Source: Takakia lepidozioides
Lineage: Eukaryota > Plantae > Bryophyta
Direction: 5' to 3'
DNA: 64,000 bases
Assembly: GCA_030704615.1 (NCBI GenBank)
Contig: CM060734.1
Coordinates: 63,426,001 to 63,490,000, forward strand
Part shown: positions 18,682 through 58,370 of the stretch, one piece after another
Layout of the letters: each line of letters begins with the position of its first letter
How positions within the stretch are numbered: the stretch's first letter is position 1
The notes under the pieces: model-generated
The model's database searches: none
Seen by the model: only the letters and a program-made list of their open reading frames with translations
What the model was told of the DNA's origin: nothing
Made by a program: the position numbers and the translations under genes

Positions 18682-18695
18682 CTCGAGAGAGATGA
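18681..18695 (+). promoter_or_regulatory. Putative self-primer binding site
   Basis: ACTCGAGAGAGATGA is the exact reverse complement of TCATCTCTCTCGAGT (18483-18497) inside the repeat. No TGG tRNA-type PBS is present. Confidence 0.75.
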
Positions 18696-25181: not shown

Positions 25182-28100
25182 TTGGGGTTGGGAGTATGTA
25201 GGGCACTCAAGAAGCGGTTCAAAACAATGGTGCAGTCGGGGAGTAAGTTACAAAATTCACCTACGAATGGGAAGAGTTCCAATGCAGCATCTGAAGATAC
25301 TATGGGCGAAAGAGGGGGGCACAAATCAGCAGATTACTTCAGGGATGTCCTCAAGCTGAATGCGACAGGCAAGAATCCCAAACAACTTCTCTTAGACAAA
25401 GACATCACCAAAGAACAATGTGCAAAGTTGTTTGGACAACCTGCAAACAAGAATGGCTACTTTTACATGGGTTGTACTGACAAGAGTATGATTCCCAAAA
25501 TCGAGGACCTATGGAGTAAGGTTCATGGGTATGATTGTAAGCCAACCGGTGGTATCATTGCAAACTTGATGGCAAGGGGCATTGTCTATGAAAAAAGGAC
25601 TGGACAAAAACTCAATTGGGCAGCATACGCGGCATGGACAGCTAAGCAACAAGAAAGAATGAAGGAGCATCGAGAAGCAAAGGACCCTGGCAGCACAGAC
25701 AGTAAGCCAAAGCTAGGAGTTTGTGAATTGAAAGACAGGCTACGCAAAACCCCAGGTAGAGGCAAAGAAGGACTGAAACAAACGCCTGAGCAAGTGATTG
25801 CAGAGATGGAAAGGAAAAAACATGAGCAAGAGTATGTGGCAACTGCTCTAGCGAGTCTTCAGGAACTACATGATTTGAAGTATGAGGAGATGTGTGGGGC
25901 AAAGGAAGAGTTGGAGAGGTTAAAGAAAGGGAAGTTGGACTTGATGGAGAAGACGCGGACTGTTCGGGTGCAAATGGAAGACAGACAATGGTGTCTTGCA
26001 GAGTGTCGGAACAAGATTGCAGACCTAGAGGCCAAACTCACCCACGAGGGTGCCACAATCCGAGCCGGGGAAGAGACCTTAATGCAAAAAGGGAAGAGAG
26101 TGTTGGGTTACTGAATTGTGGAAAGGGAAGACAGTCTGAGATGCAAAGGGAACTTGACCAGAAGAAATCAATTGAAGCAGAATTTTGGCTCAATGCTGAT
26201 AAGACCGAAAAAGAGTTCAATGCTTTGTGTGATGCAGGGGACCAGGAAGACAGGGACATTAGAGTGGCAGAGAATGTGGTCGATGTTGCTGACACAGAGA
26301 GGAGTCTTATCCAAGATCAGATTGAGGCCTTGACAAATGGGGACAAAGGACTCGTCATCTATCCTATGCCTATATGTCATCCTCAAGTGATCAAAGATAG
26401 TACGTCCATCAAGGATTTCCTGAAGGTCTCTCCTTGCCCTGTTTGCCACAAAGGTTTCCACTGTTGGGACATGGTGGTGGCATCTTGTAAGCACACTTAC
26501 CATCCTGCTTGTATGGCATCCCATATGAAGACGTCAAACAGGTGTAGGGACTTCAGCTGTTCAGAGATCATGCATCCTGATTGGTGTTCTAGTTTTGGGT
26601 TTAGGATTCTTGACCCAGAGGTGCAGGCACTTGCGGAAAAGCTGAGAGTGGTTGAGCTGCGCCAAAGGTGGATGTCAAAGCAACTTCACGAAGCCAGGGT
26701 TAGAAACACCCAAGTTCCAGGTAAGATTGATTGCAACATTTCCATGTTTTCTTCTTCAGAAAACTTGTGTGGTCCAAGGCTGTACCTCTTCATGTCCAAT
26801 CCTCAGGACTGTAGTCCCAAGATTGGACCTTCAACCCCTTAAACTGACTATGAGTCTGAATGTGGGACTGCAAATGTTATTATTTGTCCTTTTAGTGGAG
26901 TGAATCCTTACTGGGGAGTCCTTATTGAGGAGTGTCATTCTTAACTAGAATTCTGAGTCTTCAGTCATGTGGAGTGTGAGTCCAAGTGCTGACTCATGTG
27001 GAGTATGAGTCGATGTGTTTAGTCATGGGGAGTGTGAGTCCACTTGCTGACTAATTATTGGGAGTATGAGTCCTTAATGATTTCCACTGATTTCCAGTTT
27101 GGAATCAGAGTCCTGTGGAGGGTCAGTCCATGTGCTTAATCATGTGGAGTGTGAGTCCAACTGCAAAATAATGGATGTGGAATGCGAGTCCTTATTGAGG
27201 AGCTTGCTTCTCAACTTGGAATCTGAGTTATGGACCAGATGGAGTGTGAGTCCTAATTAGGGAGTGTGAATCTTGCTTGTAGTCCCACCATCAGCTGCAT
27301 AGAACTTGGAAGTCTAATATGGGGGACAAAAAGTCCATTATGATGGACTGTGCACTCCCCACATAATTATTGTAGTCCAACTGTTGGGACTTCGGCCAAT
27401 GGTAAGGACTACAATGACTTGTCTGGACTCAAATTACAGTTAATGTTGTATTGGTAGACAGTAGGCACCAAGTGATAATTCAGCCTTCTCAAACCAGTTG
27501 TAATGGTGTAGGTGTGATAGCAGATGATGGCTTCATTGATGCCAACAAACGAAGACCAGGACCTCCATCTCAGGCCACCACCAACTATAGCGCATTCACC
27601 ACCAACTACAGTGGAGGCCAAAGTGGATGGTGGTAGTGCTGTGAACCAAAACTTCCCTCGAACTCCAAGCTCGTCAACTCTTCAAATGTCACCTTTGGGG
27701 CTGTCGCGGCCGGGGATCGTTGCACCAATTGTTGGTGATCCGTTGAACCCTGAGGTTGATGTCACACCTGATACCATCATGCAAGAGGTTTCAGCTTCAG
27801 GAAAGGGTTATGTCAAGAAGTTCCTCATTCCTGGTTCTCCACCAAAAAAGATTCCTGGATCTCCACTGCAGGCTGCATTTGTTCCAGAGATTGTCACGAC
27901 ACATACGCTACAAAGTACACATGAAGATGTTGTGGACTTGACAATCCCATCCACTGTTGTTCCTCCTTATGTGGATGTGAAGGTTGAAAGAGATGGTGCC
28001 CAAAATACTGGACATGTGGCAACCCTCTCATCAGACTCAGAATTGGGGTCACAGGGATTTGAAACTGATGTTGGGGCCGACTCCCAGTCTGATTCTGATA

Positions 28101-28549
28101 CAGTTGTGTTGCACAGTACCATAGGTGGAGGCCCCTCACAAGTTTCAGATCCTATATTTCATGTCACTCCACCAGTTGCTACCTCCCTTGTTGCTCCGCC
28201 AATATCCATTCCCGCAATTCCAGCTCAATTGGATGGTGGTTCTCCATTACCTATGGTAGTATATGTACCTCATGCCTTAGCAACAACCCCTCCTGTTCTT
28301 GGACCAGTGTTGAACCCCCCAGCTGTAGCCCTTGTCAGTCCACATGTTCAAGCAACAGGGAAGCGTAAACGAGAACGAAAGAGATCTCGCAAGGCATTGA
28401 GTGCAGAGTATGCAAAGAAGCCCACCACTAGGGCGGATTCTAAGGTATCAATTGACAAGGATATGGACAAGTGCCCAGGTGAAAGTTACTCCTCATCAAA
28501 GAGAGTTGTCGTGCACAAGCCCTTGGATACGAATGAAGACCCCACCTAA
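25182..28549 (+). pseudogene. TE-associated coiled-coil + RING-H2 finger protein, frameshifted and probably spliced
   Basis: ORFs 25182-26114, 25892-26842 and 27524-28549; CPVC...CKHTYHPAC...CRDFSC fits C3H2C3; basic NLS-like KRKRERKRSRK. Confidence 0.6.
26840..27300. repeat. Degenerate minisatellite (GGAGTGTGAGTCC core), probably intronic
   Basis: About ten imperfect ATGTGGAGTGTGAGTCC-like units. Confidence 0.7.
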
Positions 28550-30399
28550 CTTGAAGATGGATGCAGGTTCTTCTGGTGCAGGCCCTAAGAAGAAGAAAAG
28601 AAAACATATCAACTAGGTACAAGCTGAGTACTGTACACTTATGAGGACTTTACCACTCGCAATGTCATTGTGGGGACAGGTCTCGTCTCTTCATCAGTAC
28701 TTGTTCATTTATGACATGGCCACTTTGGGAGGCAGGCACCAAGCAAAGGCTAGTCTTTCATCGATGGGGTAGAGGTTGGTGCCACGATATGTCAATGTTG
28801 AGCAGTTTAGAACTGGCAGAGGATGTGTTAGTTGTTACCATTAGGTGCCCAGCCAAGTCATGTGATGTGGATTTTCCCTTGTGGTTTCTCGAGTAGCTCA
28901 CAATGGACACATGACATGGATTGAGGGCATGCACATTACTGTTCTTTGTTCATTTTCTGCTGATAGGTATGCTGTTAAACTTGTGAGTAAGGCAGCAATA
29001 TCATGACAGTGGTTTTTGAAAACAATGCACTCTATTTTGCTATCTGTTTCTGATAGGAATTGCTAGAATACCTTTGTGCAGGCAGTCTACTGTTATTCAT
29101 TCTATGTGAGAAAGATGGCTTTGAAAGGCCCATTGTTTTTCCTGCCTGTGCTACAATTCTCCAACATGCGTGGGTTTAACAGAGTCTGCGCTTGAAATTT
29201 GACTAACTGGGTTGGGTTTATGGCCTGAAATTTGACTAACTGGTGGATGGTATGGCTCCATCCGGTTGCGTACCTCTATCCTCCTTTGCTTGACTCTGAT
29301 AGTTCATTTACAAAACTGCAATCGAACACCAACAATACAAGTCTCCATCTCTCAATGGTAATTAGTCTAGCTCCTTGGTGAAGATCCCTGGTATGGCGGA
29401 CCGAAGCCTGGACAACAGACAACATTCCCATCATTCCCCTCTCTACAGAGACAAGCTGGTTCTGTACCCCAAGTCAGGACACTAATCAACTCACTAAAAC
29501 AGAATATACCTCAGTAATGGCAGCTCTAAGCAATCTACCTTCGCTCAATTGAACACATAAATGTGATTTGTAGTGCTGCCTGCCTAATTCTTAGTATCTC
29601 TCAACTTCATCCCAAGCCCAAAATTACTTGTGTGTATGATTTAATGCAGCAGTTCAATATGCAAGGATGGCTTAACTTTGAAGAGGAATCAAGACAGTAT
29701 GATAGCAGGTCTGCTGCTGTTCCACTTGATTGTCCCACTGTGTTTGGAAGGCTGTTAGCAACTCAGACTAGAATGGCGCCCGGCTTCAGAGCGTTGAGGA
29801 TCATGTGCCTTGAGGAACATGTGCCTTATTTTACACATCTATCACTTTCTTATCCAAAACGAGGGTGTGGAACTTGAAAGGACCAAGAAGTATGACAAGT
29901 TGTAGGGTTTATGATGAGGTTTTGCCATATCTTCGTAGCCAGGCACCTTTGCCAACCAGTTGGTATGAGAAGGGGGAGGACAACAGATTGTGTGATCAGA
30001 GAGGAAGGCAGACACACTCCAAATAACAAGAAACCAATCACAGAAAGAAAACCAGACACATTAAATTGAAATTCCCCGCCTTGTGAAGTGATACACCACA
30101 GCACTAGTGCGGGAATTCTAGTCACCGGGCACATTCAATTGAACAGTAACAAATTTGGCCACAGCCACAGCCTCTTCAGCCATAGCTTGCAAGATAGATT
30201 ATAGATTATGAATTATAATTTGCGGCCAAATAACAAAGCTACATACATACAAATTCCGAAAACAATCTCTCAGCTCACAAGCAACTTGTAATTCACATTG
30301 CTACATATTTGAGTTACATAACCCAAGGGAGAATTGGACCCCATCCCGATAAGGGAAGTTGCCCGTCAACCATGGATTAGCCTGCAACATGCCATCTTA

Positions 30400-33300
30400 G
30401 CGATCTTCCATTGCTGCCAGAGCTTCATTGATGCCCTCCAATGCATCCGCAGACAAGGTGAAGACTGCATCCTTGCCTTTGACTCGGTATGTCGCTGGAG
30501 GCATAGCAAATTTGATAGCCCTCACCAAATGCGAATACAGAAATGCCAAAGGCTGGTCAGATATGAACTTGTAAGCCTTATCTCTTCTTCCACACAACTA
30601 TCTCCCTGCAACCACATGCTCGCCAGGGTCAAAAGTACTTCCCCACCCATCTGTGAATGTCTCCATAACAACGTGAACCGGCCTTTCACAACAGAGCAAG
30701 TAGAAGTCCACCCCTTCTCTGGTTTTCCAGCTTCAGCATTGCAGGCAAAATTGTCCCTTGCATCCAAGCAGGAGGCCAAGTCCTCCCCATCTCCCCCAAA
30801 CTCTTGTTCTTCATCCCCCTTCTTCTTCAATCTGCCTCCGGACAGCAGTTGTATTTGTAGGTTGCAGGGTTTGCAACTTCCATTTTTTGCATGAGCAATA
30901 CTGATGCAGTTGTCCCAATCAAGATCCAAACAATGCGGACAAAACATGCTAAGTCTCGAACCATAAGTTTGGTTGGATCTGACTTGTTCCTCCCAAGAAT
31001 GGAATGTAAGACCGAGTTCCAGGTACGGTCTTGCAATCCCACTCTTGTGTACGGTCAACATCTTCTGTACGAACAAGCCAAAAATGTCACACTGCTGTTC
31101 TAATCTTAGAGTACGAAGAAGGAGGTCGGGTGGACAGGTTCTTGCGCAAAAAAGCTACTGCCTCAGCAGCATTTTGCAGCTTCACACCATTTGAGTTTAA
31201 CTGCTCTGCTCTCGTAAAGCCCCTCTTGATCACAGCACCAGCCCCATCGTGCTCACCTTTCCCGTGCCCTGATCCAAAAAAGTTCCACCACATTGTGCAA
31301 CCCCCTGTGATGTGGGGGTACCTACTAACAAATACCAAGGACGAGCACCTTTAAACTGAGCAGCACAACCGTCACTCCATACCCAATGCGATTCAGGTCT
31401 GAACCCTGCTTCAGCAAGGTAATTCCAATGAAACCGAAAGCAATGTTGTACGACCAGCGTGTCATGCTTGTTGTCATCAGAAATGTAAAAGTGCATTCTT
31501 TCAAAACCTTGGAATCGGGATCATTCACATCAGGGTGTGGATTCCACCGGTAGGTAATTTGCACCAATATAGTGATCTGGAAACTGTGCCAGTGCATCTC
31601 TTGCACTTCATTCTGAACTGTAAAAGTGTAGTTTTTCAGCAAAGTCAACAACAGACAATATTGTATTCTCTGGCAAAGATTTCAAACTGGCTTTAAACTG
31701 AGCATCTTGCCATCGGGCTACAAAGTTATGACGAACAAAAGCCTGTAGCTTGGGTTTGAAGTACGACAAGAATTCAACAGAGGAAGTCGTTTGGTATTGG
31801 AGTTTCAGTCTCATTCTAGGGGCTCCATCTTTCTCCCCAACATTCTCTTTTGCATAGCATCTCCACTGCACTGTCAAATCACAACCATTTGCCTCCACGG
31901 GACAAATAGATAACTTACTTGAGCCACACCTCAAGCACTCTCCCATGAGACAGTCTCGCCGATGCCATTCATCCAATTCCCCTTTGGGACAAACAATTTC
32001 TTGCCAAAGCCAAGTCACTCCTTTGTAGGGGTGCTTGTTCGCTTGACAACCAGCTTCACCATCTAATACTGGTCCACGTCGACAATTACAGTCACAAGTA
32101 CATGATGATGGAGAGTGGACACCCCTCTCGGCAGTCTGCATGTTGTTGAACCCATCCTTCAACTCCGCCATCTCCGCCATCTCCACATGATATTTGCAGC
32201 AACAAACATTACGATCCTTCAGGCGTTTGACAAAGAATGGCCTCAACAACTCAAACAATCGTTGACCCACTTTGACATTGGGATGGGCTGATTTGAAGCG
32301 AAGAAAGAAAGCAGTCTGCATTGCCACCACAACATGCACAAAGAGAATCCCATTTAGTGCATGCACTAAGAATACCTACTACTAGACCTAGACCAGTCCT
32401 AGACCTAGTCTTAGTCATAGTCCTTTCTCATCAATCACATGTCAAATTGTACAAGTACTAATCAGTCCTAGTAGTCCTAGACCTAGTCCTTCCTAGTCAC
32501 ATATGAAGTGTACATGTACTAATCAGGTCCGAGTGTGAGTCCTTTCTAGTCACATATTAAGGAATGCATGTACTAGCCAGTCCTAGTCCTAGTCCTAGTC
32601 ACATACCAATGAATGCATGTCCTAATCAGTCCTAGTCCTACTTCTTTCTAGTCACATATCAAGGAATGCATGTCCAAATCGGTCCTAGTCCTAGTCATTG
32701 TCCTTTTCTAGTCACATTTCAAGGAGTGCATGTACTAATGGAGTACATGTACATCGACTTCTAGTCCCTCCAAATCAATTTACATGGAGTGCATGCTATT
32801 TTGTCCTATCTAGTCATAATATAAGGAGTGCATGCTAGTGAGTCGTACTTCTAGTCCATCCCAGGCCTGTTTACAATGAGTACCAGTCCATGAACAAGGG
32901 ACATCTTCAAGACACTCCAATTCAGGACATGAGCTGGACATAGTGTCCACAATTGAGTACAGTAATCTCAGTCCACTGGTAGGTTTACAGGTGACGATGT
33001 ACCTTGTCTAGGGAAAATGTACGAGGCAACCCAAACAACACAATGGCAGTTGACAAACTCAACATAGTCCAATACAGTTATGTACAGTAGTAAGTGTAGA
33101 AGGATTGTAAAGTACTGAGAGCCCACACAAACACTGTAAAGAGAGGGTTCGCTTACCTGAGTCTCAAGAAGATAGTGAGCAGGTGTTTGTAGACTTTCCT
33201 CGATACGCGCTGCCTCACGACATCTTTCTTGTTGGGTGACACTCGTGTCTCATTTACCCACCAAGCCAAAACGATCGCTCGGGTCGCATCTGGTACATGA

Positions 33301-33966
33301 TCAGACCTTTTCTTTCTCCCACCCAAAGCCCCTCACCTTCTGAATCAATGACTCTTCGTCGTACAATTGCACGACTAATATTGCTATGATGAATATTAAG
33401 AATACGTGCCGTTGCCCTCACAGCAGTGGTCTGGGTTCCACTAACAGACGTTGTTAAGAATGAGCGTTTACTCGCAAGCTTATCTAAAGACTGCACACCC
33501 TTAACAAGTTGCATGGAGCTCTGCTGGTTCTTCAACAATCTGCATGCGCCTTGGCCTCCTTAGGCGGCAAGTAATAGGCAGGTAAGCTGAGTTTAATGAG
33601 ATGGTGACCCAAAAATAACTCCATTACCTCTGTTTGTGAATGAAGTGTTGGGCATTCCCTCAACTGCTTGTAACAGAAGTCGGCCATTTTCGAAGCTATT
33701 CTCCTCTTGTCTCGTTCTCCAAACCCCACCCTGGCATCTTCCACAGAACCTTGCCCAGACGTTGTAGTAGCCGCATTAATCTCTGCCTCTTTTTGGGCTT
33801 GAAGTATATACATTCTTTTCTGGTCAGCGTGGGTTTGTTTGCGTGTATCCTCGGTGGGCCTGGCTGCAGCCAACAAAGCCAGTTTTGCCCTTTTTTGAGG
33901 GCCTGGTCTTACCTCTCCACTTACCCTATACTTGTTCTTCTTGTTCCCCATTGAAAACTGATGCAA
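30400..33966 (-). pseudogene. Sola2-like DDE transposase, frameshifted, with intron(s)
   Basis: Motifs VDFAE(N)YTF..QNEVQEMHW, WSDGCAAQFK, WNFFGSGHGKGEHDGAGAVIKR, Cys-rich CCCKYH and ACFCPHC, and an N-terminal HTH-like segment. The transposase call is solid; Sola2 is from motif recall. Confidence 0.75.
32380..32880. repeat. Degenerate minisatellite (CCTAGT / GCATGTACTAATC units) in a transposase intron
   Basis: Reiterated CTAGTC and ~45-55 bp higher-order units. Confidence 0.7.
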
Positions 33967-35236
33967 CTGTTAGCACAATATAGAGATCGGAAACCAGACA
34001 ACAGTTTGCTTAAGTGTACTCTCTGCGTCTCCTGCAACCCCTTTGCCCTTATGTGAATGTTACATTATTTTCTAGATTTTCCAAAATATACACCAATGTA
34101 ACTCTCTTCATGAAAAATCATCAAGCAGTTCATTCCTTCATAAAAACCTCCATATCATTGTAAAGTGCCTTAGGGAGTCTTGAAAGCTACACTTCTTATG
34201 AAAGGACCATAGCATGAAAATGAATGGAAGAAGGTCTAATGAATTAGGATGTTCCAAGATAAAATGATAGATTTTGAAAATTTCTCACATATCTCATAAA
34301 CTAATTCTTAGGGCTACATTGTGGTTTCCACGTATAACGGTGACCTTCCTACTGGACATTAAAATCCCTATGTGAATTGAAGTTTTCCACCACTCCAATT
34401 GATTCCATATAATCCACAACCTTACTTTGGACATCATACATACTTTTACGTTTGGACTTCATTCAATGCTCAAATCTCCATGGATTCCAAAAAGAAAACC
34501 ACCGTTGTTTTCAGCACAGAATAAGGATCAATGATTCATGTCTAAACTTTCAAAATGCACTTATATCCAACATCCATGTCAGTCCTTCTATGTGGCACTG
34601 CATTCGCAGAGAGCTTGGGACGTCCATTTTGGGTGGACCGTAGCATGCTTTGACCCTCCTACACCTTACCATCATGCAGAGCGAGGCACTTTGAGAGAAG
34701 TCTGGCAGTTGATAGCATAGATCAGGATTATATCTTGCTTGGTCGGGCCTCTATTCTTCCCCTCCCTCTTGTTACTATTTCCATTACTTTGTGCTTGTAG
34801 TTGCCAAAGCCTCTCTTGGTGGAGGCCAGTCAGTCCGGGGTTTTGGGCTGGGATATTTTGCAGGATCAACATTGCAGATGGATTTTGGTATGGGGTGTTT
34901 GATGTTTTGATTTCTTGTGTTTGGATCCCCCCCAACACCTGCATGCTTGATTGTGCGCCATGTTGGTTTTGTGTGGGCGCTTGCTTTCATAGGGATTAGG
35001 CCGGATTTGATCACCGGTCAATCCTAGAATATGCTGTCGGTGGTGAGGCTGGAGTGATGACCAGCAAGACCACCAGTGTTTCTTCTATGGTGAGACTGGG
35101 TTGATGACCAGCCAACCATAGGAGTTCTTGCGGTGGATGCAGGTGCAGGTGCCCTGAGCCACTGGGATATGACCCTTAAACTGCAACAGGTGCCCACCCA
35201 CCTATTAGAATTAGTACTAGAGCCTTATAGTGTCAC

Positions 35237-38200
35237 GTGGGGGAGGTGCACATTATGAGTGTCATCACGGAGTTACCCAAGGGTTTTGAGGGGAGTACGG
35301 CTACAGGCAGTAATAGTGAGAGTGGGTTCACAAGACGAGGTATTTGGTTCAGACCACCTTCACCTCCACCCTCAACTAGTGTAGAGTCAGACACAGATTC
35401 GGAGGCTTCATCAATAGGTGTGCAGTTTCATTCGCCATTGTTGTGGGACGACATGGAGGAGATGTATGGAGCTACCAAGGGGCCTCGTACGTACTCTGGA
35501 GCTGTGGGCACAATCAAGCTGGATGACTTTATCCAGGAGTTCGACAATTGGTGTGATTTGCAGCAGATGCGCAATCCATAGCTGTTCACCCCATTCATGG
35601 CGTGGAAGGGATTGTTCCAGCATTTGGAAGGCCCGCCTATGGACGATTACCACAAGTTCAGGCGAGGACATGAATCAGAAATTGAAGAGTGGAGGATGTA
35701 TTGGTCACCTGACTACGTCTCCATTACTCGAGGAACAACGCGACCAGTAGCTGCATCAACACCAATACCTCCCACGGCTAGCACTAGTAGTGGAACAAGT
35801 AGTGCCGGTACTTCTGCAGAAGGTCCTACTACTCATCCTCCCACGACTACAACACATGTGCCTAGATTCAGCCCGGTGGTGGAGTTCTTCCAGGAGTTGC
35901 GGAGGAACTACCAAGGTGTACGCACAGAGAAGCTGCGAAGTTTGCAAGACTTCCAGCGCAAACCCATTGAGAGCCTGCGAGAGGCGTACACTCATATGAG
36001 TCACTTGATAAGTGTGACCCAAGGGGTTACTGAAGCTCAGACAATCCAGTTTTGGTATGGAATTCTGGACAAGGAGCTCAGGAGAAGGGTGCGAGATGCA
36101 ACCCTGTTACAAGCAGCCCAACCCACATTAGCAGATGTGTTTCTGCTGGCTGAGCGGATTGAGCTCAACATGGTGGAGGAGCGAGTTGTTACCATTGGAT
36201 TTGGCAAGGACATGCCTACACGAGGCGTAGCTGCCAGTCCACAGGCACAAGGGACTGCCCAACAGCGTGGTCAGGGGGGCAAGGTTTCCCAACCCAAGTT
36301 CCATGGAGCTTATAGGGGACCTCAGGTGCAGAGGCCCGTGGCATCTGCAGGCCAACAGCAACCAGGGGTGATATGTTGGACATGTGGAGGACCCCCTGTC
36401 AAGAGAGATTGCCCAGAGAGTGGCAAAAGGCCGGCACAAGCACAGCCTGCACAGTTGCAGTGTGGGCATTGTGGCAAGTATGGGCATGGAGATGCCCAGT
36501 GTTATGACTTGCACACCCTGAGTTGCGCCCAGCCAGTTCCAAGGGAACAATGGTGGCTGGGGGCGAGGTGGACTAGCCCAGAGAGGACGAGGTGGCCGGG
36601 CATGAGGTGCAGGCCAAGGGCAAGCTCAACATGGCCAAGGACGCGGAGGTCAGGGTGTTGACCAAGGCATGGCCAACCGGCTTCAGCAGCTAGAGCAGAG
36701 GCTCGCTACCATGGCTACAGCTCAGGTGGTACCGGCTCCCAGGCGGGATGGTCCACCTCCTGCTCCTGAGGAAGGAGATATGGGAGGGATGGGATTCATG
36801 TGCAGACCAGCACTACCACTAGAGCAGGTGGAGTCTGCTGCAGCCGTGACTCGAGGAGCATCACGAGTTCCCGAGCCACGAGGTGCAAAGGTGGAATTGG
36901 ATCCACAGCGTGGGGAGGCAAGCCGTCAGGCGAGGCTTCCTCAGTCATTCACATTGGTGGAGACAGTGTTGACGCCATCCATGGCACCTAGTTCTCGCCC
37001 GACTGTTACCGAGGCGGAGGTTACTATGCCATTGGGGAGAGCTACACGTGCAGCACTGACACCTCCTGCCAAGGCTAGTGCAGCCGGTGTGTTGTTGGGA
37101 GTAGCCACCTCTGTGTGTCAAGCCCCACTGTTCTTGGCAACCATGATTGCGACGCCCGGGGTAAGACCAGCTGCAGTGTTCAGACTAGTAGCAACACTCT
37201 GTGAGAGTGGGGAGGTCACTTCATCTTCTGCGGAGTTAGTGGAAGGTGTAGTGGCAGAGCGATCCTCGGATTTGAGGGTCAAGACTGCCACGGCTGTGCC
37301 ATGGCAAGCTGCAGCTGCCAGGTTGACGGAGCTGCCAGCTAGGCCAGCCTTTGAGCGCGCCATGGTGACACCTGGAGTTGTCTTGTTAGACAACCAGGAT
37401 GACATTTTCTCTTTGAGTGGACCGGCAGGCAAGAAGTACCGGCCACTGCGGGTCTTGTTGGACTCGAAAGCTCAGCCACTGATGTTGGGCAGAGCTGCTA
37501 TTGCAGGTTTGGGCCTCATGGAGGCGGATATAGAGCCTTGTCCTTTCCAGACACAAACATCTCTGGGAGGATCAGAGCAGGCTCGGGGCATGACACGGCG
37601 TGAGTTGGCCATTAGACTACAGCCGGATCATCCTATAGATGGCTCAGTGATGCGAGCCAAGGCCATTGTGACAGACGCGGTCTCTTACGATGTCCTCGTT
37701 GATGGGGCAGTGTTATATCCCATGGGCTTCACCCTGGACTTTTGGGAGGAGTCAGCATCCTACAGGCCTGGATGGCAGTCAGGGGATGGTCGTCATGCAC
37801 AGCTCCCTGTGACATTCATTGGGGGTATTGCGGCTGCCAAGCGGGGCAAGATGCCAATACTAGCCGCCTTTACAGCTGCAGTTAGTTGGCCTGGAGAGTT
37901 GCTGGAAGGCAATGCCCATGCAGAGGATGTGCCACCTTCAGCAAAGCAGGATGACATGCATGGTACGGCGGAGTTGCCTGCCATGGTTGCTCACACTCCA
38001 TTGTGGGGTACGAGCAAGGATTTGCAGCAGGCTGCTGATGGACGGGTGCAACAAGCCTGGGTAGAGGCCTTCGTACCGTCAGGAGAAGAGGAGAGTGCGG
38101 TGATTGCACCAGAACCACCTCAGTTGTTGCCATTGGATACCACACCTCTTGTGTGGCAATGCCCGGATGAAGGCATATGCCTTCTGGACTTGTTTGGCGG

Positions 38201-40385
38201 GATCAGCACTGGATTGGCTGCAGTGTTGCAGGCAGGTGTAGGAGTTCGACGTTACCTGTATGTGGAGAGGGATGAGACTGCACAACGCGTCTCACCACGC
38301 CATGTTGCTTAGTTGGTACAGCAGTACCCTGATTTGTTGCCAGTGTCTGCAGTTCGTGGATACCAACAAGCCTTGCCAGCAAAAATTTCGTTGTTGGGGG
38401 CGCAGGATTTGGAGCAGGTTGGTTCCATTGATCTGGTAGTGGCAGGTTGGCCCTACCAAGGGCATTCATCAGCCATGCATGGCAATGGATTGCGAAACTC
38501 GAGAACGGGTCTGTTTTGGGAGATGGTGCGGGTTTTGCGCCACTTGCAGCTTCATCAAGCTGTATCTCCAGCATACATCTTGGAGAATGTGCCACTGATG
38601 GGTGATTCTCGGGCCAAGGTGATGGCCAGTGTGCATCAAGTCCGGTCGTGGCTTGGGTCAGCAGTGTTGCTGAATGCAGCTTCAGTGGGGTCACGGGCTC
38701 ATCGTCCACGGCTATGGTGGACTAACTGGATGCCACCCGCACTGCTGAAGCGTGCATTTTGATGGGGTGCAGCGGCCAGCACACCTCACAGTGGATAGCA
38801 TTTTGGACACAGGGAGGCAGTCTCAACGTGTGAGACACGATGACCGTTCGTCTTTGGCAGTGGTCAACAGGGTGGGTCAACCACGAGCAACATTACCTAC
38901 ACTGCTCAACTTCCCAGGATCCCATGCTTTTCGGGATGGTGGACCTGGCCTCTGTGGGATAGCCAGTTGCAACAATTAGTGGAGCCCAATGTTGACGAGC
39001 GCGAGCGGGCGATGGTTTTTACCACTGGTACCACGGCGGTGCCATCTCTTTCTAAGGCATCACATCGTCAGGTGTTGGGGCAAGCAATGGATCTCAATTG
39101 CTTGACCTGGATTATCAGCTTGGCTATGGCTGAGCAGCGCAGAGTACGGAGTATACTTCCCATCATGGTCTCCTTGCCTACCGAGACGGTACAGGCAGCG
39201 AGTGAGGGCGAGCAGGTGAGGACCACGAGGTGCAGGCCGCATCCATGGCACACGTGGGAGGTGCTCGAGGTTCAGAATGAGTTGGCAGCCAAGGCGGCGG
39301 TGATGGATCAGGTTGGGGATTTTTCTCGGGTTGAGGAGGTCCTCAAGGATGGGATGATGGGGCAGGGTGAGACATTGTCACTGATAGAGGAGGTAGTGGT
39401 CACTGCTCAAGAGGTTGCAGCATAGCAACCACGGGACTGGCTACTGACACGCCAATCTTTCGGAGACCCTATAGATACAGTGACATGGAGAGGTCCTTGA
39501 TTCAGATGAGAACTCAGAACCTTTGGGCGGCTGGTTTGGTGGAGCTAAATGGGGGAGAGTATGCTTCAGCCACAGTGATGCCAGCCAAGAAGGATGTCTA
39601 TGGCAATTGGACAGAGAGACGTATGTGCGGTGATTACCGGCCTGTAAATTGTCAGACCAAGTCCGATAGGTATGCTATGCCGACACCAAAGGAGATCTTT
39701 GATGGATCCGGATATCACCAGTTGCCGATCAAGGAGGCGGATAAGCAGAAGACGACATTCTGGGGGATCAATGAGCACGGGAAGGATTGCCTTTACCAGT
39801 GGCGGTTTTTACCATTTGGGCTTAAGAACGCTCCGGCAGAGTTTCAGAGAGTCATGGACAGGATTCTAGCAGGGGTGGAGTTTGCTTGGTGCTACATAGA
39901 TGACATCATCATCTTTAGTGCTACGGTGGAGGAGCATGAGAGACACCTTCAGGTGATATTTGAGCGCTTTGAGGGCGCACGGATTGAAGTTACATCCGGG
40001 GAAGTGCAAGTTTTTCCATAACCAGATTAAGTATCTGGGTCACATGATATATCCTGGAGGATTGGGGGTACAGCAGACTAAGGTAGAGTCCATTGCACAA
40101 ATTCCACGCCCCACGGATGTGAGCCGAGTTCGAGCTTTCATGGGGTTAGCAAATTATTATAGACAGTTTGTTAAGGGATTTAGTGCCATTGCAAAGGCTC
40201 TAACCAAGCTGTCCAAGGTGGACCAGGAGTGGCAGTGGGAAGATGAGCAAGAACAAACTTTTCAAGAGCTCAAGGCGAGGTTGACCTCGACGCCCATCTT
40301 GAGACGACATATCAGGGGGCGTCATTTTCAGCTGCATACGGATTGGAGCATGTTAGGGCTAGGAGCGGTGCTCACCTCTTATTGA
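35237..40385 (+). pseudogene. Ty3/gypsy polyprotein gag-PR-DNMT-RT-RNase H (truncated in RNase H)
   Basis: Gag knuckles CWTCGGPPVKRDC and CGHCGKYGHGDAQC; protease VLLDS(K)AQP; C5-MTase motifs; RT RMCGDYRPVN, LPFGLKNAPA, YIDD; RNase H start LHTDWS..GLGAVL. Several stops and frameshifts. Confidence 0.9.
38170..39120 (+). pseudogene. DNMT3-like C5-cytosine methyltransferase domain inside the retrotransposon polyprotein
   Basis: Motif I LDLFGGISTG, II YVERD, IV DLVVAGWP(Y)QGHS, VI YILENV, VIII AHRPRLWWTN, IX/X ERERAM.F..GTT...RQVLGQAM, in canonical order. Catalytic Cys codon is TAC at 38454-38456. Confidence 0.9.
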
Positions 40386-40634
40386 CCCTCCGGTCGTGCA
40401 AGAGCCATGTGAATATATAGATGATGATTCGGCTTCTGATCATGACTCTCCTGAGAGGGGTTTTGATGAGGACAATAGACAGGAGTTGGAGCTTGATGAG
40501 GAAGATGATGTCCCTCCCGATGACATGATGTAGTACCCACGTGGCACATTATTACAAGGCGAACAAGGCAACTACTTCGGAACCAAATTGATCAACCAAG
40601 ATGATGTCTCCCTCCACGACATACAACAATTTGT

Positions 40635-41157
40635 TGTCGTGCGCATATATATTGCTACACAACTACATCGCTGTCCAAACTACACCACACATATATGCAC
40701 AATAAAGTAGTCTGCCACAATGATAGGAAACTAAGAACACTGTGTTGACACAAGAAACATGAAAACCAACACCATCACTCTTTAATATAATAGTCAAGCC
40801 AGGGGCACCCCAAGCTATGGGGACTCTACCCCACAACAACCTATCCTCCCTTCATAAGCACACTCAGATTCTGAACGGTGAAGGAGCTCGGTCGTGCAGG
40901 CTCAACTCGAGAGAGATGAGTCGCACGACTGACGCTCTCGTGAAGATAAGACGGTTCAGGTGTCAAACTAAACTTGACACCTGACTTAACACTTGAACTA
41001 AATCCAAGTGTTAAATACAAATAACTAGCTTTATTCTAGTTAGTTTCACACTGTGTTTATTTAACTTGACAGCTGTTGTGCGCATACATATCGCTACACA
41101 ACACTACGCTGTCCAAACTACACCACACATATATGCACAATAAAGTAGTCTGCCACA
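40635..41157 (-). repeat. 3' terminal B-A-B repeat block (B1 41074-41157, A 40721-41071, B2 40635-40719), preceded by a PPT at ~41159-41170
   Basis: ~85 bp direct repeats flank a copy of the 351 bp A repeat. Minus strand reads CTAGGGGGGCGAT|TGTGGCAG. Confidence 0.85.
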
Positions 41158-41417
41158 ATCGCCCCCCTAGCTGGTGGATACGTCCCTCTAACTCCAGATA
41201 GCTACAAGATGTAATAGCCACAGCCGTACTAAGTCCTCTATCACTGTCTCTATTGTACTCAAACTCTATAGACCAAGAGGCCGGGTACAAGAGTAGCCCC
41301 ATCGTTAGTCGTCGTCTTGCAATCTGTGAAGTTGAGCCAGGATCTCGTGTATTTAAGGTCTCCTAGTAGCTTGGCCTTGTATTTCTTGTTAGTCTTCCAT
41401 GGTTGTATCCACTCCCA

Positions 41418-42587
41418 CTATCCAATGCAATGCGGACATAACCAATTCCCATCAGGAACCATCTCAAGAGGTGGAGTCAAGCATCCTATATGCCAACCTC
41501 CAGAGCATCGATCACACATCAGCATGGTGGTTGCCCCTCTAGCAGACCCACACAACATGCACCTCAAACTTGCAGGTACCACTGCCAGGTTTGGGTCAAT
41601 CCTGCCATCGACATTCGGAAGGTGACATGGCGCACAATTACGCACATGGTCCTTCCAAGTTATGCCATCCCGACCCTCCAGGATCAAGACGCCTGAGGGC
41701 AAGACCGAGCTCGAACCCTCAAAATAACACGTCCTGCAGTCACATCCAAGGTCGTAGGAGCAGTCTGCTGCAGATAGACATAGTCACCAGGGTTGAATCT
41801 CCAAACCCCAGGACGATAGCCCCCACCACGTATGGTAGCATACCTCAACGTATCACGATGTTGTGCAATGGCAAGGTTCTCGAAAGCCATGGGCATGACT
41901 TTCTTGAACAACTGCACACTGATCACATGCACGTGCCCACACGTCCGGATCGTCAAGGTTAAGAATTGTAGCAGCTTCTCTACGAATGGATGTAGGCAAA
42001 TCCGACTCTCGGCCAGAGAGAAGAAAGTATGGTGAGAAGGAGGCAAGTGATGCTTGCTTGCTGAACCTGTAGCCCATGGCTAACCAGGGTAACTGAAGGT
42101 CCCAATCTCCTAGGTGTCCCTTCTGCAAGCCATACTTGCGCAAACCCCTCTTTACTGTCTGAACAACTCTCTCTGCCAAGCCATCGGCCTCAGGATGATC
42201 CCGAGAAGTGGTGCGGTGGTCTATCAAGGCCTTGTCACACAAAGCCTGAAACTCCCACAAGAACTCTCTCCCTTGGTCCGTGAGTACCTCAGCTGGAGCA
42301 CCGAATCGGCTAAGTACACAATCCAAGAATGCATACGCGGCTCCCTCACTAGCCTTATCAGGCAATGGAACCAACTCGATCCACTTGGAGAAATGTTCCA
42401 CCATCACCAACACGTACTTGTTGTGGCGCATGGTCGGTGGCAACGGCCCTGCGAAGTCAAGACTCCACCTGTAGCCCAATCCCATGATCGGAAGAGGGTG
42501 CAATTGTGGAGTAGGGGCGTTGAATGAAGCACGCACCCTGTCACACACCATGCACCTAGCCACAAATTGTTGCACCTCTGTGTGCAT
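41418..42587 (-). pseudogene. Ty3/gypsy integrase core followed by a C-terminal PHD finger
   Basis: CMVC, WSLDFAGPLP, VLTDQGREF, HPEADGLAER; PHD CMLC...CDRC...WHIGCLTPPL..VPDGNWLCPHC (C4HC3). Frameshifted and 5'-truncated. Confidence 0.92.
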
Positions 42588-42824
42588 ATCTTTCTCCGAT
42601 TCGTCAACAAGTCCGCCAGAATGTCAGGTACCACGGGCATCCAACGAGATGCGCGGCATGCCATTGTTTCTCTTCCTCTTCTTGTACATCCTCATTGTCA
42701 TCGTCATCGTCATTGTCATCCTCGTCATTATCCTCATCGTCATCCTCGTCTTCGTCCTCCTTCTCCTCCGGCGCAATATTCGCATCAACCACTGATCTCA
42801 TCCAACATTGTTCAAGGCAGTGTC

Positions 42825-43375
42825 TGAAGTGACTTCCCTGATCACTAATAAATTCCAAGGGACAGCCAAATCGTGTAAGTATGTTCTCATACAGGAACCT
42901 TGCTGTGGACTTGGCTGTGTTGTCCCTCAAAGCTTTAGCTTCCACCCACTTCGTAGTATAATCAGTGGCTGTAATTATGTACTTGTTCTGTGTATTCTTG
43001 GCTGGTGGGTTAATTGGTCCAACAAAGTCTAGTCCCCATTTCTGAAATGGTTCAGTAGGCATCGTAGGATGCAAAGCCATTTTTCCAGATCTCTGCAAAG
43101 GTCCTAGCCTCTGACATTCATCACAACTCTGACAATACTTGTGTACATCCTTGAACAAAGTAGGCCACCAGTAACCTGCAAGTAGTATCTTCCTACTGGT
43201 AGTCTCTTCTCCAAAATGTCCTCCAGCCACTCCTTTATGAACTTCCTCCAAAACTTTATTTACTTCATGGTGGTACAAGCATCGTTTAAGTACTCCATCA
43301 GGTCCTAGCTTATACATTCTGCCTCCTACCATAGTATAAGGTAAAGCCTTGATAGCGATTCTCTTCCTCCGCTCC
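42825..43375 (-). pseudogene. Integrase fragment of a different non-chromovirus Ty3/gypsy family
   Basis: H..VAGGHF, GYWWPTLFKD, CQSCDECQR, KWGLDFVGP, ISDQGSHF. Confidence 0.88.
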
Positions 43376-43610
43376 TTACCATAACCAGGTGGGCACTGAC
43401 CATGAGTAAGGTAGTATCTGATTGGCCACGGGGGCTGCTATTTCATGAGCCATGAGCCATGAGCCATGAGCCATCAGCAGAGTCGTAAGTGTCGAAAAAA
43501 ACATGAGCAGGACTATTTTCCAGAAATGAGTGTCCGCGGGAATAGGGTTTAGGGTGTCACGGTCATAGGGGGAGAAGGACCTCCCGATGACCCGCATGAA
43601 GCCACACTCG

Positions 43611-45405
43611 TCAAGCAAGAGGGTTGCATTTGGACCTACAATGTGGGGTTGGAACCACGAATAGGGCGATGGTGATCATACTCGAGTTGCAAAATGGCAT
43701 CAAGCTCCCCAATATATTCAAGCTTGCTTCTCTCGAGTCGAATGTCCCTTGTGCTTGACACGGAGTCTTGCCAATATGTTGCACACAAACCGGAGTCAAA
43801 TGTGGTCTTCTGACGCATGTCAAGAGAACGAATGCGGAAATGACGTCCATGAATCCAAATTGAGGAGAATGAAATGGCATATTGAGATGGCCCTCTTGCA
43901 AGCTCTTGCACTAAAGGCGGCACCACCTCGCCCGCGGCCATCGCAGCCTCAACTCCACTTCGGAACCAATGGCGAAATGGTCTCAATGGCTGCATCTCTG
44001 TGGGCAAATCACGCCCCCCCGATGGGGCCGAGCTCGTGGATTCGCGCCGTCCTCGTGAGGCTCGCAATTCCCTCGCACGTGTGCGTCTCCAAAATTATAC
44101 TTGCTTCCAACTGCCGTGCATTCTCATCCACATGTCTTGCCTCCCACTCCATTATGCAAGGGGTGTTCTTCAATACAAAGTCATGTGCTTGCTCCACCTC
44201 GGTGTTCGATAGTTTCACCCTCCTTGATTTTTTAGGCAAAACCATGTCCTTGTTCCGCACATCATCCTCTTCCTTCCACATTGGAGGGGCCTCTTTGTCC
44301 ACCTTTCTCATGTACTCCGTACATAACACCATAGCCTCTTGCAATGTGTACCCCTCCGCCATGCTACCCTCGGGATGTACCTGTTGCTGCACGTGTGCCT
44401 TGACCTCCTTCATGTAACGCTCTAGAAAGTACATCCACCGAGCATGGACCGGTCCGGCAATCTCCGCCTCTTCCACCAAGTGCACTACCAAATGCACTTG
44501 GATGTCAAAGAAATTAGGGGGAAGATGCATCTCCAACATACACAAGACCGTGGCCGCCTCCTCCGTCATTCGTGGAAAATCCGCCTCGTCTATCTCTTTT
44601 GTGCAAAGCCAACGGAATAAATCAGCAAGTCGATAGACGGCTTTTCAAATGCCCTCATGGAGTGTCTCTCGTATTTCAATGGGAAGGATGTCTTGCAAAA
44701 TGTTGTGGTAGTCATGAGACTTCAAACCATGGATAGTGGTGGCATCCTCAAATTTGTTGCGTAGAGATGCGCCATACCCGGTCGGGGTCCGGATAGCTTG
44801 TATTGTGGTCCGCCTTTGCTTGTATTCCTCTTTTGTCCAAGTCCAAGTTGGCGCCCTATACTTCCACTTGGGAGCATTGTTCACGTCCACACCATCAGCT
44901 TTAGGCCATAGTCGTGGCATACGGTTTTGGGCTTGGAGCTCTTGCCTCACACCAAGGGAATCACCGTCGTGTTTCTTCTCCCCCCCGATTAAGTTTGCCA
45001 GTACACGAATAAGTGATGAGCACACATTCTTCTCAATATGCATGGGATCAAGGAGGTGCCGGATTTTCAGATCCTGCGCATCATGAAATTTCCATATAAT
45101 TTGTCATAAACCCTGGACTCGGTGCAATTTCATATGAATATGTCATGGCATTCAATGAATATGTATGGTCCAATGCATTTCGGACTTGTACCTCCCAATA
45201 AGGCAACTTGTAGAAGATTGAGAGCCGGGACATGCCACACCTCTTGAGCCGGCGTTTTTTATCCAACACCTCTTGCCCAAAATGACTCAGGGGGACGCAC
45301 GAGTGGAGGTCTCCTCTCCACGGTCCCATCAAATAATTTCTTGCCTCTCGTTCTCCATGGATGGTTGAGAGGAAGAAGTTTATGATAGTTGGGATAGATC
45401 ATTTT
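43611..45405 (-). pseudogene. CACTA/En-Spm transposase, C-terminal half
   Basis: SIFYKLPYWE, DPMHIEKNV, GLKSHDYH, PPNFFDIQVHLVVHL...GPVHARWMYFLERYM...PEGSMAEGY (DUF4218-type). Confidence 0.9.
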
Positions 45406-46073
45406 TGCGACGTTCTTCGAATGCTTTGCATCAAGGTTATCCGGCCCACAACATGATCAGGCCTAGCATTTGGCGTGCACTAGTGCCTCCGGTCCCCATT
45501 CCTCAAAGCCAATCATTTCAGTTTTGGGGTCGGCGATATTGTGTGAAAACCGCCACCAACCCTTCCATGGGTCGTGGGCTATTTGCAATGGAGGACATTG
45601 TGGTTCCTCCAGGGAGAGGGCTGACAGTGGACTTATTTCCCTACTTTGGCCCATACTACATGTGGTTCCACTGGACGCAAATGTGACGGGTAGCCCCTTG
45701 GGTGAGACCTTATGGTCTTTGTGTCAATGACCTCGATGTCTTCAATCGGGTGTTGGACCTTGGAACAAGGGTCATATGTGACGGAGATCCTGCTGTGTTC
45801 GGGAATGTTGCAGGATTCATCAATAGTTCAATTGGTAACCCTAAAATGACCAATGTACTGTGGGATGAGCGACATGACGGGGATGTTAGGCTAGCACAAT
45901 TGATATCAAATTTTGTTATGACATGTGCATGTACTACAATTCTCGCCGGTTCAGAGTTGTTTGCCTCTTATGAGTTCTCTGATAAGGCTTGGGATAAGAG
46001 AGTCCATCGGGAGTGGAGTGAGTTTGACAAACGTTACAAACGTCACTCCCGCGGCCGCCGAGGAAACTTGTAG
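45405..46073 (+). pseudogene. SET-domain coding fragment next to the CACTA transposase
   Basis: MGRGLFAMEDI ... YFG ... GNVAGFINSS ... ILAGSELFASY matches SET motifs GxG, (R)FINHS and ELxxDY. Interrupted by a stop near 45684. Confidence 0.7.
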
Positions 46074-46267
46074 TAGGGGATGGTGATGAGTCATGTACAC
46101 ATATCGTGGCCCCTATTGTGGCACCGGTTGGGATTGGTGATTAGGGTTTAGGTTTTAGGCTGAATGTGCCAATGTACATATATTTTTTGGATGCAAATGG
46201 AGCAATTCCCAACCATTGTATATTAAATGAATTGTGAATGTATTTATAGAGCCAAGTACAAGAGCAA

Positions 46268-47985
46268 ATGAGGTCAGCGAACCCTCCAAGGGGCACGCAG
46301 GCCGAGGTGGACAACAATACTGGTATTGGCCGCGGAAAACAAGGCCCAGACGACCATATTGCCCAAGACGGTGACGAGGTGGAAAATGAACACAATATGG
46401 ACACTGACGATGTGAGAGCCATGGAGGATTTGTTAATGAACCACTTGGGGGAGGGACAACAAATTGGGGAGGATATGGCTCGCCCGGCCACATTGGATGA
46501 AGATGCCGACCCAAATCCAATGGAAACCGAGGCAAAAACACCCTTGTATAAAGGAGCAAAAGTGAGTCGACTTTCCACTATATTGTTGTTGCTTAATTTG
46601 CAATCCCGGTTTGGCATAAGCAACATTGGCATGTCCGCAATCATGCGCACAATTGCGGACCACATCCTTGCCCCCCATTTGGAGCATAAAATGCCACGTT
46701 CTCCAAATGAGGCAAGACAGGTTCTAGACACAGTGGGGATGGGCTACAAAATTTTCCATGCATGTCCTTGTGATCACACCTTGTACTATGTAGAGGATGC
46801 GCATGCTACCACGTGTCCCAAGTGCAAAAAATCTAGATACGGAGATGATGTTCAAGGAAAGAAGATCCCATGAAAGGTATATTTCTCTTATATTCTCTTT
46901 CCTGCCATTTATATTTATATACATAAATACATGTGTCCACCAACTAATATATCATTTTAGGGTGTAGGGTTTAAGAGGTTGTATCATTCCGATATTATTA
47001 GCGTATGCATATAGGTTATATGAATCCTTCAGCTAAGTAGCCTTACCAAAACAAGTCTTGATCATCCTTCAAAAAATGCCATGTTCCGGTGTGTTTCCAT
47101 GCCGGCGATCGTGAGGGCCGATACAGCTTTGGGAGAGGTTAGAAAATCGCATTTCCAGTCTTCCCGCGTTGGCAAATGATCGGAGTCCGAATTGCCCAAC
47201 TTCATGAAGTGGCATGCGGAGCCCCTCTCGGAAAGCTGTGCGGGCCCTCACGATTCGCCGGCATGGAAACACACCGAGGAACAATGGCATTTTTTGAAGG
47301 ATGATCCAAGACATGTTCGGGTCGGCTTCTCCGCTGATGGTGTAAACCCACATTCAGTCCAGTCAAGTAGCCATTCAACATGGCCTGTGACTTTGGTTAA
47401 CTGTAACATCCCCTTATCTTACTATCAAAGAAGGGTCATATCATGTTGGCTGCCATTGTGCCAGATGGATAACATAATTCCTTTTTGTTGCTTTAGGATG
47501 TACGTGGTAGTACAATGTCAAATATATATGGAACTAAGAATATCATTTGTTCTGTTTGAATTTGAAACGATCTTATATATATTGCAAATAATTTGTGTTG
47601 TAGGGAAAAAACAAGTTGCGAATATGGATGTGTATATGCGTCCATTGGTTGACGAACTCAATATATTATGGAATGGAGTTCCAGCTTATGATGCATCGGC
47701 CCCCATCGGCCAACGTTCTTTTCTCTTGCGAGGGCTTTTGCTATGGACAATGCATGACTATCCAAGTACATTTTAAATTGATATTACCTATAATATATAT
47801 ATTCTACCGTATATCATGTGTTTGTATGTGCTTGTCAGGAGTTTCCTTTAGCAATTCATGTTTTTGCTCGGTTCATTGAAATTATACGAGGCGACGAATG
47901 TTAAATCCCAACTAAATTCATGGTTTTGTGCAGGGCTGTTAGTTTGGTCGGGACTAAGCACAAAGGGGTACGCACCTACACTTCC
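46268..47985 (+). pseudogene. CACTA/En-Spm transposase, N-terminal half (Transposase_21 type), with introns
   Basis: HACPCDH...CPKC...RY, MKWHA, DSPAWKH, DPRHVRVGFSADGVNP, STWPV, DVYMRPLVDEL..LWNGV, LLWTMHDYP, GLSTKGY. Confidence 0.9.
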
Positions 47986-58283: not shown

Positions 58284-58370
58284 GGGCGGGTACACAGGTG
58301 AAGATCCAGGAGTGTACAAGATATCGCTTGTTTTCTACAGCCCCAAGACCTAGCTGGGCTTGCTTGTGCC

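Follow-up and report, generated by a model that had tools for sequence, protein, structure and literature searches.

Methyltransferase-bearing retrotransposons described from algae and dinoflagellates are the closest points of comparison for the element analysed here. According to de Mendoza et al. 2018 (PMC5890265), KnitGypsy-Dnmt3 of Klebsormidium nitens is a Gypsy element bearing a DNMT3-type methyltransferase (MTase), and SymbioDIRS-Dnmt3 of Symbiodinium carries a DNMT3-type domain in a split-repeat retrotransposon, its enzyme methylating CG de novo in yeast. Such retrotransposons have been stated to be absent from land plants such as tracheophytes (PMC6338049). In a stretch of 64,000 nucleotides from Takakia lepidozioides (contig CM060734.1, positions 63,426,001 to 63,490,000; hereafter the window), we found a decayed Ty3/Gypsy copy with a complete, intron-free C5 cytosine MTase at 38169–39149, in frame behind the protease. 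As relatives in Marchantia, Calypogeia, Sphagnum, Closterium and Klebsormidium have the same order of protease, MTase and reverse transcriptase (RT), the element represents the branch of KnitGypsy-Dnmt3 in land plants. Elements of this kind were described before from Klebsormidium, and the preliminary description of this DNA had pointed to the algal and dinoflagellate precedents. The present analysis adds the bryophyte branch, a conserved stop codon between MTase and RT, self-priming, palindromic split ends and a PHD finger. The literature that we searched, with figures, preprint supplements and most subscription papers outside the search, held no report of such an element in land plants, nor of the priming, stop, junction and PHD features, of split repeats combined with an integrase, or of elements with both PHD and MTase. 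The word 'Marchantia' does not occur in PMC5890265 and its accessible supplements, and a 2025 survey adds no bryophyte case in its accessible part. EpiLTRs/DAM-LTRs likewise pair a methyltransferase with a chromatin reader in long terminal repeat (LTR) elements, but their DNMT is sister to DNMT4 and comes with DAM and a chromodomain; the accessible text of that preprint names 'streptophytes (Gypsy-DNMT3)' only as earlier work (bioRxiv 10.64898/2026.05.21.726589).

The coding part of the window copy stands on the plus strand. Behind a remaining 5′ leader (34655–35450; contig cover rises and loose contig ends cluster at 34655) lies Gag with Cys/His knuckles (35237–36660, homology at 35453–36511), broken by one stop and one frameshift. 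It is followed by an aspartic protease (37365–37820) whose motif reads LLDSKAQ, and LLDSGAQ in relatives, two of which (P0147 and P0226) match Pfam Asp_protease_2. The protease motif shares one open reading frame (ORF; 36606–38312) with MTase motif I, and RT homology sets in at 39437, about 290 bases past the MTase. RT, with its YIDD box, and the first half of RNase H occupy 39437–40385; the window ORFs match Pfam RVT_1 (E 1.5e-17) and RT_RNaseH_2 (E 5.8e-11). The preliminary description had posited a single polyprotein with the MTase between protease and RT, motif I in the protease ORF and RT within about 400 bp. The position and the spacing hold; the single polyprotein does not, given the conserved stop between MTase and RT. 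The element also extends outside 35237–40385, to 18331–18695 and 40635–42690. The latter segment holds, on the minus strand and thus inverted relative to gag-pol, a DDE integrase of the same family (41600–42690; Pfam rve, E 2.5e-14; D-34-E spacing as read from the sequence; about 70–72% DNA identity to sister loci), which ends in a PHD finger (41421–41570; Pfam PHD, E 1.7e-10). The order Gag-protease-RT-RNase H-integrase, the DDE integrase, TG...CA ends, target duplication, primer site and polypurine tract are those of Ty3/Gypsy elements; two full direct terminal LTRs are absent. The chromodomain that follows the integrase in chromoviruses is absent too, with a PHD finger in its place. The copy is dead, as had been recognized from its altered catalytic motif and stops: it has stops at 35579 and 38310, frameshifts near 36515–36530, 38757, 38950 and 39970, gaps near 39385–39440 and 39705, and a cut within RNase H at 40385. 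The stop at 39423–39425, on the other hand, is a feature of the family and not of decay.

Within the MTase, motifs I, IV, VI, VIII, IX and X follow the standard order between 38181 and 39100, in agreement with the earlier placement at about 38170–39120. They read LFGG (I, 38181–38204), GWPY (IV), ENV (VI, 38583), AHRPRLWW (VIII, 38697), EPNVDERE (IX, 38982) and LGQAMD (X, 39075). The domain is broken by one stop, two frameshifts and a Tyr codon (38454–38456) in place of the catalytic Cys found in relatives. Pfam DNA_methylase matches its middle piece above the curated cut-off (E 1.2e-8). With the MTase domain of an intact relative as query, DNMT3A was the best of 33 sequence matches in PDB (E 1.3e-12); the plant enzyme 4onj, which we take to be DRM2, reached E 7.9e-7 over part of the domain, and HaeIII 1.5e-5. 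A structure model of the intact MTase domain of sister locus L028 (pLDDT 95.7) had DNMT3A and DNMT3B on top in a Foldseek search, DNMT3B with a Z-score of 29.3 and a root-mean-square deviation of 2.5 over 274 aligned positions. M.MpeI (25.4), HhaI (23.3), DNMT1 (20.0), DNMT5 (18.6), ZMET2 (18.5) and DNMT2-type RNA enzymes (20.6–22.6) scored lower. Both sequence and predicted fold thus support DNMT3 as the closest relative of the element MTase, the likeness first suggested by motif wording. The un-rearranged order I to X, with PC and ENV, is that of DNMT3-type enzymes, PC being lost in the window and kept in 51/51 covered loci. DRM, the rearranged plant DNMT3 with motifs VI–X before I–V, was considered and rejected on this order.

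The MTase trees hold only element and viral-contig enzymes. Profile searches of proteins did not return a host DNMT3, the profile having been inflated to 884 positions by one long member and ranking element polyproteins; a profile search among only those proteins above 3076 residues gave 2 matches. No close donor was present among 71 loci of distant C5 enzymes from a scan of viral contigs, which share 22–46% identity over part of the domain. L075, L076 and L085 are small viral-contig C5 methyltransferases with DNMT3-like wording (LSLFDG, GGSPC, AHRxRxYWTN).

The suspicion of a land-plant family proved correct. Searching proteins with the read-through MTase domain yielded 37 matches; those with a species name come from Marchantia polymorpha, Calypogeia fissa and two Sphagnum species and show 45–73% identity. 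A metagenome scan added 74 sister loci from the best 80 of 218 matches, and wherever their contigs reach the order is Gag, knuckles, protease, MTase, RT, RNase H, integrase, PHD. The MTase lies between protease and RT in 38/38 loci covering both, a count biased by the MTase in the query, so no sister copy lacking the domain was met among them. In DNA runs, contig depth (which is not copy number) is about the same for MTase, protease, RT and integrase. In one further run, guessed to be RNA, contigs span portions of the element and little of 38365–39820, which has no bearing on expression. A search with RT-RNase H alone, free of this bias, found 1088 proteins. Among the 120 listed, 16 have the order protease-MTase-RT, 13 MTase-RT and 16 carry the MTase after RNase H; in one, from Haematococcus and of another branch, the protease is joined directly to RT, and the remainder are separate RT ORFs or unrelated animal elements. 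One insertion (L018, L019) lacks RT and RNase H and keeps Gag, protease, MTase, integrase, PHD and both ends.

Named members with the MTase before RT include Klebsormidium nitens and Closterium, and in quick trees, built without an approximately unbiased test, the bryophyte, Klebsormidium and Closterium elements form one RT clade (FastTree support 0.999, one outgroup), the bryophyte and Closterium-containing groups being neighbours with modest support (0.82). In the MTase tree the window enzyme falls into a clade of seven with Marchantia, Calypogeia and the peat-moss type (support 99), which groups with the Klebsormidium lineage (81), and all element MTases separate from the viral enzymes (99). 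The tree pattern and host range fit inheritance within streptophytes. With KnitGypsy-Dnmt3 the window element shares an un-rearranged, intronless DNMT3-type domain inside the Gypsy coding region, purifying selection, common descent of RT and MTase, and the split-repeat layout A-coding-B-A-B, present in the window, L027, L045 and L048 and given for Klebsormidium in a figure legend of PMC5890265. The order protease-MTase(-RT) is found in two Klebsormidium proteins, P0311 (KFL_009030040) and P0147 (KFL_013780020), which fall into the same RT clade. In KnitGypsy-Dnmt3, however, the MTase is described in the Pol ORF with RT, whereas in the bryophyte branch, besides the land-plant host, a stop puts it on Gag-protease, which we regard as a variant feature of this branch. 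The accessible parts of PMC5890265, where 'PHD' has no occurrence, mention for KnitGypsy-Dnmt3 neither self-priming nor a palindromic junction, 4-bp duplications, a one-repeat form or a PHD finger.

In 65 of 89 proteins with both domains, including P0039 from Scenedesmus, the MTase stands between RNase H and integrase. Since these form one clade (98) nested among MTase-before-RT elements when the tree is rooted on viral enzymes, the MTase likely moved once within the element. MTase and RT distances are congruent (Mantel rho 0.70 over 89 proteins, 0/999 permutations; rho 0.82 within the 24 MTase-before-RT proteins). After double assemblies were dropped, 53 of 65 loci had enough MTase left for analysis of selection. 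Copies retaining the catalytic Cys abound, with 51/51 distinct loci among these 53 (two being uncovered) and 215 of the 219 proteins with a residue in this column (244 rows, 25 gaps). Among these mostly dead loci the ratio of nonsynonymous to synonymous rates (dN/dS) is 0.58 for MTase, 0.57 for protease and 0.37 for RT, against 0.72–0.78 for flanking linkers. The window compared with sister loci gives a nonsynonymous divergence (pN) of 0.28 for MTase at a saturated synonymous divergence (pS) of 0.74, and a pN of 0.31 for protease; the PHD row of this comparison (pS 0.19) was discarded as an alignment artefact. The MTase is thus under purifying selection, an old and maintained part of the element.

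The stop behind the MTase recurs at one codon position in 47 of 51 anchored sister rows, duplicates included (35 TAG, 12 TAA); the other four have TAC twice, GAG once and one mis-anchored row. CAACCC follows in 48 of the 51. Of 27 rows, 18 have the stop in frame with RT, and decay has shifted the others. It separates Gag-protease-MTase from RT-RNase H-integrase-PHD. Indeed, ORF1 proteins of Marchantia, Calypogeia and the metagenome end 74–80 residues past the MTase, and many RT-integrase-PHD products begin just before RT. From the stop position and these ends and starts, the MTase goes with Gag and protease and is likely made at capsid level. In the window the stop reads UAG-CAA-CCA (39423–39431) and fits the type I readthrough signal of tobacco mosaic virus, UAG-CAR-YYA, as given in PMC2754532. 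Tyr is the residue inserted at that signal, and one sister insertion (L001, L071) has TAC at the stop codon. Readthrough of the conserved stop is likely. Sister loci of the peat-moss type, in contrast to the viral signal, read CAA CCC ATG. An ATG two codons past the stop would also allow re-initiation in those loci; this fits the loci and not the window, because the window has CGG there.

The priming of the element also departs from the usual retrotransposon scheme. The bases directly behind the 5′ copy of terminal repeat B (18331–18681, plus strand) are unlike a tRNA primer site, having no TGG start. Instead, this primer-binding site (18682–18695) pairs at 14/14 positions with its exact complement inside B (18483–18496), the likely RNA 5′ end; 13 pairs are reached in 0/5000 shuffles of B. 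Among 24 sister 5′ ends, 18 pair over 8–16 bases with different letters at the same position before TTGAGCC, one has a 6-base match only and five have none. In the loci the pairing place within B lies 20–30 bases after a TATAAA box, and primer site and B segment fold as one long-range stem (z −2.55 for the window, −3.50 for the loci). Seen in two families with different letters, this geometry is that of self-priming, which is known in the Tf1/Sushi and moss Tcn1 groups (Neumann et al. 2019, PMC6317226). Those groups, however, are chromoviruses with ordinary LTRs, whereas the bryophyte family combines split repeats and an MTase with a PHD finger in the place of the chromodomain. The main text of PMC6317226 contains none of the words 'PHD', 'methyltransferase' and 'Marchantia'.

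Integrated copies start with TGTC of repeat B and end with GACA of repeat A. Behind the polypurine tract stands A alone in eight loci (L018, L022, L023, L038, L046, L060, L063, L067) and A-B(-A) in five (L027, L031, L045, L048, L073) as well as the window; A precedes B in 0/22 distinct 5′ ends. Exact 4-bp duplications flank seven of the eight loci with both ends, and the eighth matches in three of four bases. The A/B joint is a palindrome, GACA-GC-TGTC, in two families that have no alignable B repeats (z 1.5), and a staggered cut after each CA of this palindrome would yield exactly the observed ends. Because A followed by B spans the distance from polypurine tract to primer site, A-B is the true LTR, and the site that the integrase uses lies within this LTR. 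In the long form the B-A joint is a direct, blunt join of two expected complementary DNA (cDNA) ends, as in a two-LTR circle, and in one insertion (L039, L004) it keeps primer-site letters, as circle junctions do. Together the ends suggest integration from internally cut or circular DNA by a DDE integrase. Foamy virus integrase is known to cut a palindromic two-LTR circle junction and to make processed ends from it, according to Delelis et al. 2005 (PMC1180852); its palindrome, however, is the LTR-LTR joint, while that of the bryophyte element lies inside the repeat and its copies have a permuted repeat. Split repeats explain why LTR-finding programs would miss the family. Internal inversions together with a B-A joint bearing primer-site letters were seen in L039 (14228–15124), L004, L044 (6343–6575) and L064; these inverted sister copies appear to have arisen by insertion into DNA of the element itself.

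The window insertion has the long form. On the minus strand, from 42690 to 40635, integrase and PHD are followed by the polypurine tract AGGGGGGCGA (41159–41168, conserved in sister loci), a first repeat A directly behind it (41074–41158), the palindromic junction ACA-GC-TGTC at which integrated copies begin and end (41068–41077), the 3′ copy of B (40721–41071) and a second A ending in GACA (40635–40720). The 5′ B, which begins TGTC, ends CA and is 98% identical to the 3′ copy, is likely the 5′ end of the same insertion; it now lies about 16 kb upstream of the coding part and is placed as B is in 22 sister 5′ ends. Host DNA flanking the 3′ end (40385–40634, minus strand) has been inverted along with it; paired with 18241–18306, the opposite arm, it makes up an inverted-repeat target. 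The flanks of the ends at 18331 and 40635 rebuild this one target with a duplication following the family's 4-bp rule, GCAA (18327–18330) on the 5′ side and ACAA in element sense (40631–40634) on the 3′ side. The most economical interpretation is a single insertion that was afterwards broken up, both by about 16 kb of other DNA and by an inversion taking in 250 bases of flank. Two separate copies are a possible alternative, given that the two A repeats differ by about 7% and the two B repeats by 2%. The window leader and B do not align to sister loci (z at most 1.5), and the restart of the leader after 18695 was not located. Nine ORFs scanned in the intervening 18700–34650 gave no Pfam match; short tandem repeats lie near 26930–27170 and 32530–32700.

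These features can be arranged into a conditional replication cycle. RNA would start inside repeat B; the majority of ribosomes would terminate behind the MTase and the remaining few continue into RT, so that a particle would contain many MTases but few RT/integrases. The RNA 5′ end would pair with the primer site and prime reverse transcription, as in Tf1-type elements, with A-B at both ends as the normal product. The integrase would ignore the outer ends and cut the internal GACA-GC-TGTC palindrome, leaving recessed 3′-CA ends. A one-repeat circle, or cuts at both sites, would give B-coding-A, and a two-repeat circle cut once B-coding-A-B-A, the only one of the two forms whose transcript would retain the complete repeat and which could go through another round of copying. 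The MTase would methylate the cDNA or circle, probably at CG like the related dinoflagellate enzymes in yeast. The PHD finger would likely steer insertion to nucleosomes with unmethylated H3K4, where the new copy would arrive pre-marked like the silent chromatin there. The nearest solved relatives of this finger are CHD4, KDM5A/B, PHF12, ATXR5 and PHF21A, mostly known to recognize the unmodified H3 tail; the cage Trp, two positions ahead of His, is missing in all but a few rows, with Gly there in 111/123, and targeting to H3K4-unmethylated chromatin is likely on this comparison. We give an even chance to the proposal that the MTase enters particles in capsid amounts and methylates the cDNA of its own element prior to integration, favoured because the MTase is on Gag, its active site is kept, the algal branch places it by the integrase and a dinoflagellate relative is active on CG. 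The combined picture is considerably more tentative: a green-plant Gypsy lineage, from chlorophytes to mosses and liverworts, with self-priming, a leaky stop providing DNMT3 at capsid level, methylated circular cDNA opened at an internal palindrome and PHD-guided placement in H3K4-unmethylated chromatin. If true, the cycle would be one undescribed for any DDE retroelement, and the design of animal DNMT3, MTase plus reader of unmethylated H3K4, would have been rebuilt from two element proteins. The family is abundant in bryophytes. Intact ORFs of it occur in Marchantia polymorpha, and since genetics and methylomes are available for this model, the function of the element enzyme, a question left open in 2018 (PMC5890265), becomes directly testable there. 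Models annotated as genes, Mp_4g09160 and Mp_8g17980 among them, represent ORFs of the element and not methyltransferases of the host.

Several observations weigh against this cycle. Among loci, dN/dS is higher for MTase (0.58) than for RT (0.37). CAA CCC in peat-moss-type loci is one base off the readthrough consensus, with the ATG two codons later. The ratio of observed to expected CpG is 0.47–0.58 in the element and 0.55 in the window background, so CpG depletion was rejected as an indicator that the element methylates itself. In yeast, the enzyme of Klebsormidium produced no methylation, a result that its authors call inconclusive (PMC5890265). Finally, random cutting of two-repeat circles predicts B-A-B-coding-A as often as B-coding-A-B-A, and the former occurs in 0/22 5′ ends against five sister loci with an A-B or A-B-A 3′ end, an unexplained asymmetry.

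The missing mirror form would be explained if template switching of the DIRS/Ngaro kind built B-coding-A-B-A directly, without cutting a circle; the layout indeed equals the A-coding-B-A-B called typical of DIRS in PMC5890265. DIRS and Ngaro elements, however, have a tyrosine recombinase, as does SymbioDIRS-Dnmt3 of the DIRS class (PMC5890265), and DIRS and Ngaro elements make no target duplication, whereas the bryophyte element has a primer site, polypurine tract, DDE integrase, TG...CA ends and 4-bp duplications. No gene of the tyrosine recombinase family turned up in the domain maps of scanned proteins, the B-A joint is a blunt join of expected cDNA ends, and the L039/L004 insertion keeps primer-site letters. 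We thus consider template switching unlikely, and prefer cutting of the internal palindrome. Equally doubtful, to our mind, is that the MTase acts in trans: made in capsid amounts, freed by the protease and nuclear, it would methylate chromatin, be it that of the insertion site, of circles yet to integrate, of sister copies or of competing elements, for instance, and so limit the family's load. The stop before RT does imply more enzyme than one cDNA would need, and de Mendoza et al. raise trans effects and self-limitation (PMC5890265); yet the ORF1 MTase has no reader or targeting domain of its own, the PHD finger being on the integrase, and its place between RNase H and integrase in the green-algal branch points to a job in the cDNA complex.

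A role of the MTase as a nucleic-acid-binding or RNA-methylating part of the particle, or in marking the palindromic cut site and thereby determining where the integrase cuts, instead of methylation along the entire cDNA, seems to us less probable still. In its favour, MTase and unusual ends occur together in the bryophyte family and KnitGypsy-Dnmt3, a CG adjoins the junction (CACGACA), and the yeast result for the Klebsormidium enzyme was negative (PMC5890265); all catalytic residues and the modelled fold, however, are those of the DNA-specific DNMT3, with DNMT2-type RNA enzymes lower (Z 20.6–22.6 versus 29.3). That the MTase is a recent passenger or a host gene inserted in the window copy, for which the broken window domain is the sole support, is already refuted by its same position in 38/38 loci and in Klebsormidium and Closterium proteins, by purifying selection and congruence with RT, and by a segment showing neither introns nor boundaries of its own.

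Other mobile DNA surrounds the element in the window. A separate, near-intact Gypsy element of chromovirus type lies at 6013–12689 on the minus strand, with direct repeats of about 427 bp that are 98–100% identical; it encodes Gag-protease-RT, RNase H-integrase and a chromodomain, and its CpG observed/expected ratio is 0.83 against 0.55 for the window. An integrase fragment of another Gypsy family (42800–43437, minus strand) immediately follows the inverted part, beyond an acidic simple repeat, and remnants of CACTA-type transposases (DUF4218, Transposase_21) are found on both strands at 44012–47773. Degenerate tandem-like repeat arrays lie at 1700–5500 and 57947–58325, the latter with a period of 42 bases.

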